From Candidatus Micrarchaeota archaeon (GTDB taxonomy: Archaea > Micrarchaeota > Micrarchaeia > Anstonellales > Bilamarchaeaceae): a stretch of DNA of 61,191 nt. Positions 15,210 to 21,432 of the stretch are shown here, in pieces. The stretch lies in contig JBGFRX010000008.1 in NCBI GenBank assembly GCA_041694885.1, positions 1 to 61,191 on the forward strand. The letters are read 5' to 3'. Below the pieces are notes generated by a model that saw only the letters and a list, made by a program, of their open reading frames with translations, searched no databases and had not been told where the DNA came from. The position numbers and the translations under genes were made by a program. How positions within the stretch are numbered: the first letter of the stretch is position 1; every line of letters begins with the position of its first letter.

Positions 15210-17108
15210 TTAAACGAGCAGCCGCCCGCTTACATTCTTCCCAAAAGAAATCGGCTCGAACGGCTTCCCATCTGTTTTTTTTTCTATTTCTGAAAGCAAA
15301 TCATTGAATTTCATCTCCTTCTTCTCACTCTCACGTACCGTAACCGCGAGTTTTCCACCTTCCATCTCCTTATCCCCTATGACCGCGACGTAGGGACACC
15401 ACTCCAGTTCAGCATTCCTTATTTTTTTTCCCAGCGTCTCTCCTGTGTCGTCCACATCAACACGCACCTTTCTTCCTTCTTTTTCCGCATTTTCGAGCAG
15501 TCCTTTCGCGAACGCGAGGTGCTTCTCCCCAATGGGAACGAGGCGCAGCTGCGTTGGAGAAAGCCAGAGCGGGAGCATCCCCTTCTTTCCTTCTCTTATG
15601 CGCATCGCCTCCTTTTCCAATAATGCGTATACTGTGCGTTCGAGGCTTCCGGAAAACGAGGTATGAAGAATGTAAGGCCGCTGCTTCTGCCCCTTTTCAT
15701 CCACGTAATTTATATCGTATGTATCCGCATTCTCAACGTCTATCTGTACGGTCCCGAGCGTGCTTGCTTTGTCCATCGCGTCTATGAAATTGAACTCGAA
15801 CTTCGTTATGAAGTAGGCGTAGCGCTCCTGGAACAATTCCATAAATATCGGCTTCCCTATCCTCTTCACGAGCTCAATATACCAGTCCTTGTTTTCGTTG
15901 AAGAAGTCGGTCTGCGCCCTGAACGCCACCTCTATCTCCCCGAAGCCCAAATCCCTGTTCCATTCCAATCCTTTTCCGAGCTGGTTCATGAATTCGTCCT
16001 TTGCCTGTGCTATGTTCGCAGCCATAGTGTGCATGTCAGGCATCGTGAATGCGCGCAACCGCTTGAGTCCTGCCAGTTCCCCGCCCTGCTCCCTCCTGAA
16101 CGAATAGCGCGTCAGTTCGTACATCTTGAGTGGAAGCTGCTTATAGCTCATCACGGAATCATGGGAAATCAGGAACTGGCCGAAACAGGCAGCGAATCTC
16201 AGGAAGAATTTCTTCTCATCAGAGATTATTACATACTGCCTCGCAGGGAACCTATTCAGGTATTTTTTGAGCGTGGGATGCTCGAAATCGTACATTATCG
16301 GCGTCTCCACTTCGTGGGCGCCATAATTTATGCAAAAATCAGATACGGCGCGCTCCAGTATTTTTTTCATCAACCGGCCTTTGGGGTGCCATCTGAAGTT
16401 TCCGGAATCACTTCCAGGTTCGTAGCCTACGAGCCCGTGCTCTTTCATTAGTTTTATGTGCGGCGGCTCGGACTCGTAGCCCCTCACTTTTTTCGTTTCG
16501 TAGGTCGCCATCTTCTTGAGCCAGGGATAGTTGGAATAGTCGAATTTTCCCACATCGTGCAGTTCCCCTTTCAAATCCATTATGTAAAATTCGCTTTTCA
16601 TCTTCTCCTCTGACTTGAGCGATGCGGAAACCACCTCTTGCACTGCTGTGGGCTGAGGGGAAACAGGAGCACCCCCTGTCTCGGATTCGGGTGCAATGTG
16701 CAATTCGCGCGATAGTTCGGAAAGCGGATGTCCCTTGCATTTGAGCGTGTATCCTTTGTACCAACCAAAAGGGGAATGGTCCGCGTTATAACCCATGGAT
16801 TTGAGCTTCGCTTCGGTTTCGCGCACCACTTCGAGTGCAACAGAAGGCGAGGAGGGTTTGGAAGTGAGATGAACAAGCGGATAGACCAATACGTTCTGCA
16901 CCTTCATCTCCTTCGCGACCCTGTCCACCTCCCCGGCCGCCTTTTTGGCAATCGCGTTTATGTCTTCGTCGCCTTGCTCCACTGAAGTGAAGACCACGAG
17001 CACCTCCTCGTAGCGTTTCTTCTCCAGCTTTACCTCCTCTGCGGATTTTATCGCCTTCTGCTTCGGCTCAACTTCTATATAGTCCGCGTGTATCGTTAAT
17101 ATTCGCAC
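15210..17108 (-). CDS. thrS: Threonyl-tRNA synthetase (archaeal type with N-terminal editing domain)
   Basis: MRILTIHAD..., VYPLVHL, PFGWYKGY..CKGHPLSELSR, RFAACFG, RREQ.GEL.GLKRLRAFTMPDMH, LHTSFSGSLER. GTG start with AGGTG SD. Confidence 0.97.
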   Translation of the reverse strand: MRILTIHADYIEVEPKQKAIKSAEEVKLEKKRYEEVLVVFTSVEQGDEDINAIAKKAAGEVDRVAKEMKVQNVLVYPLVHLTSKPSSPSVALEVVRETEAKLKSMGYNADHSPFGWYKGYTLKCKGHPLSELSRELHIAPESETGGAPVSPQPTAVQEVVSASLKSEEKMKSEFYIMDLKGELHDVGKFDYSNYPWLKKMATYETKKVRGYESEPPHIKLMKEHGLVGYEPGSDSGNFRWHPKGRLMKKILERAVSDFCINYGAHEVETPIMYDFEHPTLKKYLNRFPARQYVIISDEKKFFLRFAACFGQFLISHDSVMSYKQLPLKMYELTRYSFRREQGGELAGLKRLRAFTMPDMHTMAANIAQAKDEFMNQLGKGLEWNRDLGFGEIEVAFRAQTDFFNENKDWYIELVKRIGKPIFMELFQERYAYFITKFEFNFIDAMDKASTLGTVQIDVENADTYDINYVDEKGQKQRPYILHTSFSGSLERTVYALLEKEAMRIREGKKGMLPLWLSPTQLRLVPIGEKHLAFAKGLLENAEKEGRKVRVDVDDTGETLGKKIRNAELEWCPYVAVIGDKEMEGGKLAVTVRESEKKEMKFNDLLSEIEKKTDGKPFEPISFGKNVSGRLLV

Positions 17109-17165
17109 GAATTCCACCTTTTTTTGTTTTTTTCGAAAAGAACAGATTATTCTTTTGCTTCAGAA

Positions 17166-17194
17166 TCAGCGCCGACTTGCCGGGCGGGCGCTGA
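17166..17194 (-). promoter_or_regulatory. GC-rich hairpin in the thrS leader (candidate attenuator stem)
   Basis: 8-bp inverted repeat TCAGCGCC/GGCGCTGA, preceded in the thrS sense by UAUUUUU just after the uORF stop. Confidence 0.6.
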
Positions 17195-17203
17195 AAAATA
17201 GGA

Positions 17204-17263
17204 TTAACAAGTAGTCGCAGTTGTCGCCGCAACGGCTTCTGGCAGCACTTGCCTGCAATTCAT
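17204..17263 (-). CDS. Putative Thr-rich leader peptide (uORF) MNCRQVLPEAVAATTATTC upstream of thrS
   Basis: ATG 17263 to TAA 17204; 4 of the last 6 sense codons are Thr (ACA ACT GCG ACT ACT TGT). TTAAAAAT at 17285-17292 places the start site at about the ATG. Confidence 0.65.
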   Translation of the reverse strand: MNCRQVLPEAVAATTATTC

Positions 17264-17313
17264 GCTGCTATCATCGAAAACAAGATTTTTAATTAGGACT
17301 GCGAACGTTTTTC

Positions 17314-18225
17314 ATGATAAGATTCGGCCCTGCCGGAGTTCCCATTCAGTGCGAAGGAAACAGCACAGTCGGGGGAATAGAATGCTGCAAAGTCCTCGGA
17401 TTAGGCGCGATGGAAATAGAGTTCGTGTATGGAGTGAAGATGAAGGACGAAAGCGCAAGAGAAGCAGGAGAGAAAGCGAAAGAGTTGGACATTTCCATCT
17501 CCTCGCATGCGCCTTATTACGTGAACTTGTGTACTACGGATAAAGTGAAGGCGGAAAACAGCAAAAGGCACATTTTTTTGGCTGCAAAAGCAGCATTTCT
17601 CGCGAACGGGAAAATAACCGTTTTCCATCCTGGCTTTTACCAGAAATCGAATAAAGAAGAAGCGTTTCAGGCAGCGAAAAAGCGGCTTTTGGAAATAAAG
17701 GAGAAGATGGATTCAGAGAAGGTTAAATGCACCCTTGGAATGGAAACAGTGGGAAAGAAGAGCGCATTCGGAGGGTTTGAGGAGAACATGAGGATGGCGC
17801 AGGAACTGGTTTTCGTGAAGCCGGTGCTGGATTTCGCGCACTTGCACGCAAGGGGAGATTTTACAATAAAAGGTGAGGACGATTACAGAAAAATGTTCTC
17901 AATTTTGGACAAGGAGCTGCCGGGCTACACCAAAAACATCCATTGCCACTTTTCTGAGATAAATTATGGTGAAAAAGGGGAGCTGAACCACCTTGCTTTA
18001 GCCACGAACAACGAGCCGCCTTACAAGCCGCTGATGAAGGTACTGGCTGAAAATGGGATCAGGGGGACAATAATATGCGAAAGTCCGAAGCTGGATATCG
18101 ATGCGCTGGTTATGCAAAAAGAATATGAAAAGAATGTGAAGAAGAAAGGCTGGAAAATCCGCTCAAACCAGAGCCAGTCGAAATCGGAATTGAACGAGAC
18201 CATCTTTTTCCTCAGAGGGAACTAA
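17314..18225 (+). CDS. Endonuclease IV / AP endonuclease 2 family TIM-barrel protein
   Basis: MIRFGPAG, MEIEFV, HAPYYVNL, FHPG, ETVGK, DFAHLHAR, HCHFS..GEKGELNH, ICESP. Confidence 0.92.
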   Translation: MIRFGPAGVPIQCEGNSTVGGIECCKVLGLGAMEIEFVYGVKMKDESAREAGEKAKELDISISSHAPYYVNLCTTDKVKAENSKRHIFLAAKAAFLANGKITVFHPGFYQKSNKEEAFQAAKKRLLEIKEKMDSEKVKCTLGMETVGKKSAFGGFEENMRMAQELVFVKPVLDFAHLHARGDFTIKGEDDYRKMFSILDKELPGYTKNIHCHFSEINYGEKGELNHLALATNNEPPYKPLMKVLAENGIRGTIICESPKLDIDALVMQKEYEKNVKKKGWKIRSNQSQSKSELNETIFFLRGN

Positions 18226-18507: not shown

Positions 18508-21432
18508 CTAATCTTTCTTTGCCCTTAGTTTAACTCGCCTGCCATCAACCTCGAATATTTTCGAGTCCTCGTCCTTCAGGTTCTTGTACAAAACAGACGC
18601 GGCGTTCGTCTCCTTCGCAAGTGCGGAATCAAATTTCTTCACTATTGCTTCTATCTCCTTTTCCGCATCCACTTCGAGCAGGATTTTGTCCTTTTCCACG
18701 AGCGCAAGCTCCTTGCGCAATTGCTGCACCCTTCTTTTCACCTCGTTGTAAACACCTTCCTCGTAAAGCTCCTCATCCAATTTCTTATTCACGAAGACCT
18801 TTCCGCCTTCGAATTCCTCCGGCTCGTATTCGCCTTCGGGTTCGCGTTCCACTATAAGGATTTCCTTTGCATTAAGAAGCCGCCTCACTATTCCAGAGAG
18901 TTCGTTGATGGTATTCTTCACTTCATCCGAAGGTGCCTTCACGCGCACCTCCCTTATTGGCCAGCGCAGCTTTATCCCGCTGCGCTGCCTCGCCTCGAGC
19001 GCATGTGTGACTATTTCCGAAGCAAGCGTCATCCTTTTCTCCAGCGCGGTGTTTATCTCCGCCTCCCTGAACACCTCGAGCCCGAGGAACGCAACGCTCT
19101 CCTCCTTCTCGTGCTTCCTGAAGAACTGCTGGTATGCGTGCTCGCTTATGAACGGCGAAACCACGGAAAACATCTTGAGCAATGCAAGCGTTGAAGAGTA
19201 TATCGCGAAAAAAGCTCCCTCAGCATTCTCGCCTTTTCCTATCCTGTCCTTGGCTATCTTCATGTAGAACCGGCTCAAATCCTCAACAAGGAACCTCCTG
19301 AGTGCCCTTACCCCAAGGTTCGGCACGTACGATTCGAACGCCTTGTGGTATTCCTTGAGTGTGCTGTTCAGCCGCGAAAGCAGCCACTTGTCCTCGATCT
19401 CCAGTTCCGCCTTCTCTATCTTTATTTTGGGATAGAATCTTTCGAGGAAAAGCCCCATGTTGAACAAAATCCCAAGGTCGCCGTTCGCCTCCCTGAGTTC
19501 GTTCCAGTTGAACTTCAGTTCATCCCACGGCATATTGCTTATGCCCCAGAGCCGGAATCCGTCAGCGCCGTATTTCCCTACGATCTCCTCTATGGGGACA
19601 AAATTCCCAAGCGACTTGCTCATCTTCTCCCCTTTCTCGTCCACGAAAAATCCGTGCATCATCAGGCGTTTGTATGGTATTTTGTCGTAGCGCAGCAGCC
19701 CTGAACCCAAAAGGGAATAGAACCAGCCCCTTACCTGGTCCTGTCCTTCCAGAATGAAGTCCGCGCGCTCCCCATATTTTTCCTTTTCCTTCTCACTCGT
19801 GCTCGCCCATACCGCGTTCCCGGAGTCAAACCATACGTCCAATACATCCTTGACTCTTTCCATTTTCCCTCCGCATTTGCATTCGAAAATAATCTCGTCC
19901 ACATACGGCCGGTGGAGCTCCTTAAAGCCATTACGCTGCTTCTTTCCAGCTTCATTCACTGCTTTCCGGTTTCCAGCAGTAGATGTTTCGACCATGTCCT
20001 CGGCATTCGCCGGGGAAAACAGATCCTCCTTTGAGCCAATTACCTTTATTTCCGCGCACTTCGCACACTTCCATATAGGAAGCGGGATGCCCCAGTACCT
20101 TTGCCTGCTTATGCACCAGTCAGGCGCCTGGGAAACGAATTCCCTGAACCTTTCCTTTGCGAATTCCGGGTGCCACTCCACGGTCTCTATCTCAGAAAGC
20201 ATCTTTTCCTTCAATTTAGAAACAGAAATGAACCACTGATCAGTTGCGCGGAATATCAAAGGGGTTTTGCACCTCCAGCAGTGCGGGTAGCGGTGCTTTA
20301 TCCGCTCCTCATGCACCAGCATCCCCCTTTCCCTGAGCAGCGCGATTATGTCCTTGTTCGCTGCGCGCACGTTCTTCCCTTCCAGTTCGCCTGCTTCCGA
20401 AGTGTAAACTCCTGCTTCGTCCACAGGGTTGAAGACCTCAAGTTCGTTTTTCTTTCCCACGAGAAAATCTTCCTGTCCATGGCCCGGAGCGCAGTGCACT
20501 ATTCCGGTTCCGTTCTCCAATGAAACATATTCGTCGCTCAGTACTACCTTCCTTTCCGCCTTCTTTTTCACCAAGTCCTGAAAAGGGTGCTCATAGTGCA
20601 CCCCATCCATTTTCTTCCCTGAAAATTCCTCGAGTATTGCAGCGCTTTTCCCCACGAGCGCGAGCACATGGTCCAGCCGCTCCTTCGCAGTTATCCATAC
20701 GTCATCGTCGATCTTCGCCTTAACATAGGAGAACTTCGGGTTGACCATCGCAGCCATGTTAGCAGCGAGCGTCCACGGAGTGGTAGTCCAAATAACAAAA
20801 TACTCGTTTTCTTTCCCCTTCACCCTGAATTTCACATATATGCTCGGGTCCGTCTCTTCCCCGTACTCGAGCTCATAATTCGCCATGGTGGTTTCGCACC
20901 TGTAGCAGCAGGGGAGCACGTAGATGCCTTCGTGCATGAGCCCTTTTTCGTGCGCCATCCTGATGGTCTTCCAACTCGCTTCTATGTAATCGTCTTTATA
21001 GGTTATGTAAGGCGTCTCCCAATCCATCCACACTCCCAGTTGCTTGAACTGGCCGGTCATGATTTCCATATATCGATCTGCGAACGCCTTGCATTTTTCC
21101 ACGAATTCCCCTATTCCTTTCTCCTCGATCTCCTGCTTCTTTTTTATCCCGAGCTCCTGCTCCACCTTCACCTCTATGGGAAGCCCGTGCGTATCGTATC
21201 CAGGCTGGCAGCGCACGTCGAACCCACGCATGCGCCAATACCTGCACACTACGTCCTTGAGCGTCTTGTTCCATGCGGTTCCAGGATGGATGTGTCCTGT
21301 TGCATAAGGGGGCCCGTCGCAAAAGTAATACGGTTCGTTCTTCGCGTTCCTCTCCTTTGCCTTCTCGTATATCCTGTGCTTTTCGAAGAATTCGAGCATC
21401 TCCTTCTCTATCTTCCTGTGATCGTATATCAT
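18508..21432 (-). CDS. ileS: Isoleucyl-tRNA synthetase
   Basis: DGPPYATG.IH.G, GYDTHGLPIE, WTTTPWTL, GTGIVHCAPGHG, WCISRQRYWG, EGQDQVRGWF, KMSKS. Confidence 0.97.
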   Translation of the reverse strand: MIYDHRKIEKEMLEFFEKHRIYEKAKERNAKNEPYYFCDGPPYATGHIHPGTAWNKTLKDVVCRYWRMRGFDVRCQPGYDTHGLPIEVKVEQELGIKKKQEIEEKGIGEFVEKCKAFADRYMEIMTGQFKQLGVWMDWETPYITYKDDYIEASWKTIRMAHEKGLMHEGIYVLPCCYRCETTMANYELEYGEETDPSIYVKFRVKGKENEYFVIWTTTPWTLAANMAAMVNPKFSYVKAKIDDDVWITAKERLDHVLALVGKSAAILEEFSGKKMDGVHYEHPFQDLVKKKAERKVVLSDEYVSLENGTGIVHCAPGHGQEDFLVGKKNELEVFNPVDEAGVYTSEAGELEGKNVRAANKDIIALLRERGMLVHEERIKHRYPHCWRCKTPLIFRATDQWFISVSKLKEKMLSEIETVEWHPEFAKERFREFVSQAPDWCISRQRYWGIPLPIWKCAKCAEIKVIGSKEDLFSPANAEDMVETSTAGNRKAVNEAGKKQRNGFKELHRPYVDEIIFECKCGGKMERVKDVLDVWFDSGNAVWASTSEKEKEKYGERADFILEGQDQVRGWFYSLLGSGLLRYDKIPYKRLMMHGFFVDEKGEKMSKSLGNFVPIEEIVGKYGADGFRLWGISNMPWDELKFNWNELREANGDLGILFNMGLFLERFYPKIKIEKAELEIEDKWLLSRLNSTLKEYHKAFESYVPNLGVRALRRFLVEDLSRFYMKIAKDRIGKGENAEGAFFAIYSSTLALLKMFSVVSPFISEHAYQQFFRKHEKEESVAFLGLEVFREAEINTALEKRMTLASEIVTHALEARQRSGIKLRWPIREVRVKAPSDEVKNTINELSGIVRRLLNAKEILIVEREPEGEYEPEEFEGGKVFVNKKLDEELYEEGVYNEVKRRVQQLRKELALVEKDKILLEVDAEKEIEAIVKKFDSALAKETNAASVLYKNLKDEDSKIFEVDGRRVKLRAKKD

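Follow-up and report, generated by a model that had tools for sequence, protein, structure and literature searches.

The 5' leader of thrS, the threonyl-tRNA synthetase gene, in an uncultured Candidatus Micrarchaeota archaeon carries a short open reading frame (ORF) that ends in a cluster of threonine codons and is followed by a conserved RNA hairpin. We consider it probable that this element acts in cis on thrS as a leader-peptide sensor of threonyl-tRNA supply, through the sequence of events set out below. The DNA analysed (hereafter the window) is the 61,191-nt stretch at positions 1 to 61,191 of contig JBGFRX010000008.1, from GenBank assembly GCA_041694885.1 (0.92 Mb, 94% complete), and the Micrarchaeota are a DPANN lineage. 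Positions are given in window coordinates; the leader, the hairpins and thrS all lie on the minus strand, and the features reported by a first-pass annotation of the sequence, which had proposed an amino-acid-sensing attenuator here, were found at the places it gave. That proposal is partly supported by the present analysis: the case for the sensor is strong, and for the expression platform and the direction of the response we infer the arrangement described further below.

The leader ORF, MNCRQVLPEAVAATTATTC, is recognised from its sequence and from homologous leaders in 15 other genomes; it comprises 19 codons and a TAA and occupies 17204-17263 of the minus strand, with the ATG at 17263 and the stop at 17206-17204. 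Four of its final six residues are Thr. The presumed sensing codons form the cluster ACA ACU GCG ACU ACU at 17210-17224 of the minus strand (Thr codons at 17224-17219 and 17215-17210), after which a Cys codon, UGU (17209-17207), precedes the UAA. The stop codon is separated from the hairpin by a U-rich spacer, UCCUAUUUUU, at 17194-17203 (minus strand), which holds a U5 tract, and the corresponding spacer is U-rich across the genus. The presumed regulated gene, thrS (15210-17108, minus strand), was identified by Pfam as an archaeal-type threonyl-tRNA synthetase, with the editing domain PF08915 (3.4e-43) and with PF00587 and PF03129, covering a class II core and an anticodon-binding domain. Its GUG start at 17108 was aligned with the N-termini MRI(L/M)T(I/V)HADY of relatives, and together with the ribosome-binding site (RBS) AGGUGG at 17119-17114 it makes up positions 17108-17119 of the minus strand. 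All of the leader features lie within the 196-nt intergenic region between thrS and a divergently oriented gene.

We scanned 127 distinct thrS upstream regions and ran two covariance-model searches, one of 401 genomes of the class and one of 99 genomes of the family. The ORF and its Thr enrichment, which the first-pass annotation had seen in a single sequence, recur in relatives: short ORFs with a Thr run at or near the end precede thrS in 16 Micrarchaeota genomes from about 12 genera and two families. Six of the eight species of the window genus have the leader in the same place, with the C-terminus ...TTT(T)C directly before the stop. The window leader ends in ...AATTATTC, and the other five read MDPSVVIVATGGTTTTTC (L002), MENRPATYFAAARTTTTC (L003), MYTGSFGSIGSTGNTTTC (L005), MYGGSFGSIGSTGNTTTC (L006) and MPKAKSTKRITETTTY (L007); their N-terminal parts are unrelated, and the Thr run and its position next to the stop are kept. 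In three genera of another family the leaders end in ...TTTTTRSF, ...TTTTRFQ and ...TTTT (L082, MPIATTTTTRSF; L084, MSNRWIACTTTTRFQ; L199, MVMKTVSSTTTT). Seven genomes from six sister genera of the window's own family also have Thr leaders, ending in ...GITTTTTC, ...GITTTC, ...VTETTTC, ...LETTTTC, ...LTKTTTC, ...TRTTTC and ...IGTTC.

The pattern at the codon level is that of a sequence which looks translatable. The Thr frame has an in-frame ATG in every one of the 16 leaders, compared with 3 of 32 cases for the two alternative frames, and 14 of the 16 have three to five consecutive ACN codons, the remaining two being the window (TTATT) and L207 (TT). The third bases of the Thr codons are mixed (T27, A18, C14, G11), and positions 1 and 2 (A and C) are invariant. 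Small ORFs with a TTT run are found 15 times on the sense strand and 3 times on the antisense strand of the 127 upstream regions, where sense-strand runs of other four-codon amino acids number 7 for Ala, 3 for Gly, 3 for Val and 2 for Pro; in the window genome, TTT occurs in 4 of 1182 intergenic small ORFs. At the level of sequence, these counts are evidence that the leader signal is coding and threonine-specific. The Thr-run leader was not found at the loci of Thermococci, Archaeoglobi or other non-Micrarchaeota in the 127-region set, and a search of metagenome contigs returned no further members of the window genus, only a duplicate of L084. Four weak covariance-model matches (L208, L209, L211 and L212) were discarded, being inside coding regions.

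The Thr codons are connected to downstream RNA in two ways. Architecture A, shared by nine leaders from the window genus and the three genera of the other family, is built on hairpin 1 (17167-17193, minus strand), a GC-rich stem predicted by folding and by covariation, with the 5' arm CAGCGCCC at 17193-17186, the 11-nt loop GCCCGGCAAGU at 17185-17175 and the 3' arm CGGCGCUG at 17174-17167. It is the 8-bp hairpin noted in the first pass, whose limits of 17166-17194 include a flanking U-A pair. The loop, with the consensus GCYYGGMRRGU, is far more conserved than the stem, and the stem does covary among relatives: in an alignment of 8 leaders, 92.7% of the stem cells are paired and five of the eight pairs show compensatory changes. 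Both sides of the stem change together, as in GCGCC/GGCGC, GGAAUCC/GGAUUCC and GCAUC/GGUGC, and neither shuffling nor sliding the register gave anything comparable. The covariance model R1, derived from these leaders, has one match per genome, always just upstream of thrS, and an Rfam search of the leader returned no family match, only two chance-level matches to unrelated families (E 0.25 and 1.6).

In nine of nine leaders the last Thr codon lies 22-24 nt from the start of the loop, whereas the distance from the stop to the loop varies from 10 to 19 nt, with 0, 1 or 3 sense codons after the Thr run. Because the former distance is fixed and the latter is variable, the RNA element is placed by reference to the Thr codons and not to the stop. 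The 3' half of the loop, GCAAGU (17175-17180, minus strand), is complementary to ACUUGU (17212-17207), the last Thr codon plus the Cys codon, and pairing between the two would give a pseudoknot. This contact, already recognised in the first pass, holds in 6 of 6 positions in the window, including one G-U, and in the alignment it is 87.5% paired and two of its pairs covary. GCAAGU accompanies ACU-UGY, and GCGGGU accompanies ACC-UGC; placed on the ThrRS tree, the double change from ACU and AA to ACC and GG occurred in two separate lineages, L002 and L005/L006, and the pairing has therefore co-varied twice independently. The last three loop bases are always NGU, as in Thr anticodons, and every run contains an ACN codon that matches. 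Since the helix is short, comparative sequence evidence supports the predicted codon-loop pseudoknot only moderately. A second pairing in the first-pass annotation, between the ORF segment GCGGCGAC and the segment GUCGGCGC of the hairpin 3' arm, is present at 7 of 8 positions, but its duplex energy is no better than that of shuffled ORFs in any of the nine leaders (z from -1.5 to +0.9), and we rejected it.

Architecture B is found in seven sequences, all from the sister genera of the window's family, which keep the Thr leader without hairpin 1. Here the leader lies 370-1020 nt upstream of thrS, with a small HTH_7 gene between them. Segment 1, which ends 2 nt before the Thr run (e.g. AAGGAUUUAG), pairs with segment 2, about 13-17 nt past the stop (CUAAAUCCUU); because this helix flanks them, the Thr codons sit in its loop. 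Segment 3, further downstream, repeats segment 1 and also pairs with segment 2. Between segments 2 and 3 there are one or more U4-U7 tracts in six of the seven sequences, the longest tract being U5-U7 in five. RNAalifold predicts both helices, 1:2 and 2:3, with three compensatory pairs each, and having segment 2 in common they are mutually exclusive. Only L201 and L202 fold as 1:2 in the absence of a ribosome, and masking their Thr codons with one converts the predicted fold to 2:3; the remaining five sequences prefer 2:3 even when unmasked. With a gap of only 2 nt to the Thr run, segment 1 would be hidden under a stalled ribosome. As far as these predicted folds go, the sister genera show what typifies an attenuator, namely a pair of helices that exclude each other, with a stalled ribosome covering one. 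Taking the comparisons of both architectures together, a role as sensor seems quite likely.

The HTH_7 ORF (resolvase-type helix-turn-helix, PF02796; 50-65 aa) stands between the Thr leader and thrS in L201 (G009), L202 (G014), L203 (G022), L204 (G020), L205 (G342), L206 (G400) and L207 (G296), and in most of these genomes it has no ATG, GTG or TTG start. Its 5' end is overlapped in a different frame by a short conserved ORF reading M..(K/A/Q)G(C/W)(L/Y)ET.. up to its stop, with the nucleotide motif GGGTGTTTAGAAACAC, and the HTH_7 frame reads UAG at the point where L206 has AUG and L207 has UGG. Judged from the sequence, HTH_7 may start by a programmed frameshift, by read-through or at an unusual start codon.

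One architecture B locus ties the leader to threonine metabolism beyond thrS. In G400 the leader (MNKVHGLETRTTTC) stands first in a row of closely spaced genes on one strand, namely HTH_7, orf106, tdh, kbl and thrS. The model NF003808 identifies tdh as L-threonine 3-dehydrogenase (411.8 bits, cut-off 380), and NF005394 identifies kbl as glycine C-acetyltransferase (485.6 bits, cut-off 460). The operon-like row is located at 1415-6727 of L213 (G400:C95), on the minus strand. A search of the window's own genome found neither tdh nor kbl.

The leader in the window appears to be transcribed from a shared promoter. The TATA box TTAAAAAT (17292-17285, read on the minus strand) is common to both directions; it lies 21 nt from the leader ATG, less than the 26 nt or so estimated in the first pass, and also exactly 21 nt from the divergent ATG (17314, plus strand). 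It looks like a symmetric bidirectional promoter for two leaderless transcripts. The symmetric layout of 21, 8 and 21-22 nt is also seen in L002, L003, L005 and L006, and the gap between TATA box and leader ATG is 21 nt in the genus, or 22-23 nt in L003, depending on the box boundaries. Most other leaders have a TATA-like box 20-30 nt before the ATG, the exceptions being L199, L202 and L206. Archaeal transcription starts about 22-23 nt past the TATA box; therefore, both ORFs are predicted to be leaderless, and the leader ORF is probably the first ORF of a leaderless transcript. The divergent neighbour (17314-18225, plus strand), assigned by Pfam to the AP_endonuc_2/xylose-isomerase-like TIM barrel family, is outside the regulator.

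Downstream of hairpin 1, the candidate site of attenuation by termination is an AU-rich hairpin with a U-tract at its end, AAAAGAA-UAAUCUG-UUCUUUU (17136-17156, minus strand), which is predicted in all states folded. The window has U-tracts at 17198-17194 and 17142-17136, and in all members of the genus hairpin 1 is followed by an A-tract and then a U4-U6 tract. The block of AU hairpin and U-tract is nearly identical between the window and L002, although their hairpin-1 stems have diverged. In the window, hairpin 1 is not directly followed by a U-run, and of the bacterial arrangement, a stable hairpin and directly after it a U-run, there is only the weak AU hairpin ending in UUCUUUU. However, this bacterial criterion may not apply, because archaeal termination, which uses poly-U tracts with aCPSF1 (PMC10450193, PMC11616081), needs nothing more than these (PMC10450193). 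In the window genome, T5 occurs in 26% of the 60-nt stretches past stop codons and 8% of those inside genes, the corresponding values for T6 being 11% and 2%, and the enrichment of T-runs is strong in the first 20 nt; this distribution is consistent with oligo-U terminators. The same genome encodes three beta-CASP ORFs of 640, 435 and 465 aa, the first of aCPSF1/FttA size.

We favour regulated termination as the output, tentatively and with somewhat less than even confidence, because of the U-tracts after the leader, the enrichment of T5 past stop codons, the 640-aa beta-CASP ORF, the known termination by poly-U and aCPSF1, and the near-identity of the AU block in L002. The first-pass annotation had also allowed for control of thrS translation. 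In equilibrium folds, access to the thrS RBS shows no consistent change across the nine architecture A leaders, being 0.49 in the window both with a stalled ribosome and with one at the stop, and RBS sequestration relieved by a stalled ribosome was rejected on this ground. Likewise in equilibrium folds, access to the next RBS in architecture B is slightly higher with a stalled ribosome in six of seven sequences. A pairing of the 5' end of the leader with the thrS start region, seen in the minimum-energy fold of the window, was rejected as well, being neither conserved nor better than in shuffled sequences.

Two members of the genus with spacers of about 200 nt, L003 and L005, have a second small ORF between hairpin 1 and thrS, which ends at a TGA within the thrS Shine-Dalgarno (SD) sequence GGGUGA. 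It reads MNISPAFRRKFMFSAKLTG in L003 and MRTIWSTLRPKVPHFEEHKG in L005, and the L003 version opens with AGGTGGAATTC(A/G)TG, the same sequence from which the start of thrS is made in the window.

In the sequence of events that we infer, transcription would start about 22 nt past the common TATA box, on the leader AUG or right beside it, and ribosomes would start on the leader without a 5' untranslated region. When charged tRNA-Thr is scarce, a ribosome would stall on the Thr codons at 17224-17210, covering the last Thr and Cys codons and so blocking their pairing with the loop of hairpin 1. When it is plentiful, the ribosome would finish and leave, and the pseudoknot would form, putting the leader in a resting fold; the equivalent resting fold in the sister genera would be the helix enclosing the Thr codons. 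Which of the two states prevails would determine what share of the polymerases gets beyond the U-tracts at 17198-17194 and 17142-17136 as far as thrS, termination taking place at U-tracts with the factor aCPSF1/FttA. Our best guess is the classical direction, in which stalling gives more thrS. If the element is a sensor, such a switching-on by starvation is the probable polarity, and we prefer it because of bacterial precedent (PMC1262725) and the logic of feedback.

Several observations weigh against this interpretation. The energy of the whole-leader fold is ordinary (z = -1.5, with 13 of 200 shuffles folding as well), and for this reason the single sequence proves little and the argument that the element exceeds chance rests on the relatives. 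A simple switch governed by ribosome position, as envisaged in the first pass, is not shown in the window: both hairpin 1 and the AU hairpin appear in every simulated ribosome state, the masks on the Thr codons and at the stop included, and these models accordingly give no clear terminator/antiterminator pair. The weak AU hairpin differs from a canonical intrinsic terminator and was not flagged by a consensus scan. The leader has been lost twice within the genus, in L004 and L008, and on this evidence it is useful but dispensable. A conserved purine-rich block adjoins the TATA box on the side expected for the transcription factor B recognition element (BRE) of the divergent gene; this BRE-like block may favour that gene, leaving the leader direction perhaps the weaker one. 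An internal promoter may serve thrS, especially in the relatives with a spacer of about 200 nt. Two further points touch on polarity. In L082 and L084, which with L199 represent the other family, the hairpin is directly followed by UUUU and would be melted by a ribosome at the stop; together with the presence of the catabolic tdh and kbl under the leader in G400, this could argue for the opposite direction, although tdh-kbl can also run toward threonine synthesis.

Such points would fit the same sensor working in reverse, with the operon on when Thr is plentiful: smooth translation of the Thr codons would keep ribosome and polymerase coupled or would melt the hairpin, and stalling would uncouple them and lead to termination by aCPSF1/FttA. 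In L082 and L084 the ribosome at the stop unwinds the whole 5' arm in the folds and the stalled ribosome gives an extended hairpin; moreover, on geometric grounds, a ribosome following as closely as it can would be at the Thr codons when the polymerase is at the U5 tract (17198-17194), and quality control of coupling by FttA has been proposed for archaea (PMC11616081). We nevertheless regard this direction as unlikely, because starvation increases expression at all characterised synthetase attenuators (PMC1262725), a negative feedback loop through charged tRNA requires starvation to switch the gene on, and in the window genus and L199 the terminating ribosome barely touches the hairpin. If the ribosome instead controlled translation, freeing the thrS RBS when stalled in the manner of ermC or of the mycobacterial poly-Cys leaderless ORFs, the element would resemble its closest bacterial analogue with a leaderless sensory ORF (10.1101/834739). 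The 3' arm of the L082 hairpin can indeed pair with the thrS SD region when the hairpin is open, and the small gain in RBS access in architecture B points the same way. The lack of a consistent change in thrS RBS access in architecture A, the distance of the leader from thrS (77-226 nt in relatives and more than 370 nt in architecture B) and the failure of the pairing between 5' end and RBS to exceed shuffles make such translational attenuation quite improbable.

Other explanations dispense with the ribosome as sensor. Hairpin 1 might imitate the anticodon arm of tRNA-Thr and serve ThrRS as an operator, in the way that thrS is autoregulated in E. coli, and the ORF would then be secondary or incidental. 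The top of the hairpin can close by G-U and C-G pairs into a 7-nt loop, YYGGMRR, one base off the anticodon loop YU-GGU-AA of tRNA-Thr(GGU), and the conservation of the loop over the stem would fit such an operator. However, U36 is an identity element for ThrRS in E. coli, and the base at this position is never U here; it is C in eight leaders and A in one, so that positions 34-36 read GGC or GGA and never GGU. Aragorn finds 17 tRNA genes in the window genome, even with an intron search, and the single tRNA-Thr among them has the anticodon CGU; a tRNA-Thr(GGU) for comparison with the loop was not found by this program in the intron-rich genome. An operator would also leave unexplained the in-frame ATG, the Thr run, the stop and the fixed distance from codons to loop, as well as the sister genera that retain the Thr leader in the absence of hairpin 1, and we judge it improbable. 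Finally, the leader could be a separate short transcript, either arising incidentally from the bidirectional promoter or coming from a gene for a micro-peptide or small RNA, and could end at its own U-tract while thrS has its own promoter. The common TATA box, with the purine-rich block on the side of the divergent gene, would suit this, as would the U5 tract 6-10 nt past the leader stop, where gene terminators usually lie in the window genome, and the AT-rich stretches between leader and thrS that could act as promoters. This is very improbable in our view: the leader stays linked to thrS or to threonine-metabolism genes over about 12 genera and two families with different neighbours, its peptide is not conserved except for the Thr run, and its RNA features are positioned relative to the Thr codons.

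In bacteria, attenuation by a leader peptide is textbook regulation and depends on the coupling of transcription to translation, a coupling that archaea share. Our literature searches, in line with what the first-pass annotation had supposed, found no described archaeal amino-acid-sensing leader peptide and found such devices only for bacteria. It has been stated in general terms that upstream ORFs regulate in archaea too (PMC10219788), and ribosome profiling of Haloferax saw upstream ORFs without characterising them (PMC7261190). The synthetase-gene attenuators of bacteria, E. coli pheM-pheST and those predicted for Streptomyces trpS and leuS (PMC1262725), resemble the element in placing a short ORF rich in cognate codons directly before the synthetase gene and in having helices that, in the micrarchaeal leaders, are predicted to depend on ribosome position. 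They differ in being bacterial, in the SD-led leader (pheM) and in a GC-rich terminator hairpin with U-run that competes with an antiterminator, whereas the present element has an archaeal promoter, a leader that is probably leaderless and no U-run directly after hairpin 1. The leader of the thr operon, thrL (Rfam Thr_leader, RF00506), has runs of Thr codons as its sensing element, as is proposed here, but it controls the biosynthetic thrABC and also senses Ile, while the gene presumed to be regulated here is a synthetase, or tdh-kbl-thrS in G400, and Rfam gave no match. In the mycobacterial poly-Cys leaderless ORFs (Canestrari et al., 10.1101/834739) the sensory ORF is at the 5' end of the transcript, and its 3'-end codon run pairs with downstream RNA when free of ribosomes, as we predict for our leaders; their run pairs with the SD sequence of the next gene in a purely translational mechanism, whereas in our leaders it is predicted to pair with a hairpin loop (architecture A) or to lie inside a helix (architecture B), and the tests of RBS access were negative or weak.

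Feedback on thrS related to threonine or tRNA-Thr through a structured 5' leader is also the principle of the E. coli thrS translational operator and the Bacillus thrS T-box, which are protein-RNA and tRNA-RNA sensors without a leader peptide. The micrarchaeal element differs from them in its leader peptide, in its lack of a T-box or other Rfam match and in a loop base at anticodon position 36 that is never U. A T-box riboswitch, which has a specifier loop and a bulge (UGGN) for pairing to the 3' end of the tRNA, was rejected, there being no Rfam match and the UGGC, UGGA or CGGC within the loop being a misfit to the U73 discriminator of the genome's tRNA-Thr.

If the leader-peptide sensor is real, archaea read charged-tRNA levels by means of the ribosome, leaderless mRNAs can carry sensory ORFs, and regulated termination can be built on U-tracts and aCPSF1. 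What is new here is the two architectures, the fixed codon-to-loop distance, the twice-independent co-variation of codons and loop, the apparent bidirectional leaderless promoter and the operon-like tdh-kbl-thrS row. More speculatively, and with considerable doubt, DPANN archaea may have their own form of ribosome-mediated amino-acid sensing, in which the codons of a leaderless Thr-run mini-ORF are held, while free of ribosomes, by the anticodon-like NGU tail of a loop at a fixed 22-24 nt or, in sister lineages, by an enclosing helix; a stalled ribosome would break the contact and so govern termination by U-tract and aCPSF1, not a bacterial hairpin terminator, with at least two interchangeable output modules, and attenuation would have been rebuilt on the transcription machinery of archaea. 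The element is short and defined (about 130 nt), makes clear mutational predictions and could be tested in vitro or in an archaeon open to genetics.

We also rejected the idea that cognate leaders form a system across the genome. A crude scan of the window genome found no other gene with a cognate leader, the candidates (ArgRS, GatD, topoisomerase VI B, glutamine synthetase and others) having non-cognate runs, and no leader was found at the neighbouring class-I synthetase gene (18508-21432), which is read as that of isoleucyl-tRNA synthetase from its Pfam domain pattern alone. The open frame of G400 thrS is 798 aa long; its match to the query is divided into two blocks, and an extra segment follows residue 150 or so. 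The pattern recurs in G017, with an open frame of 784 aa, and the 936-aa open frame of G296 is also split in two blocks. The extra segment may be an insertion or an intein.

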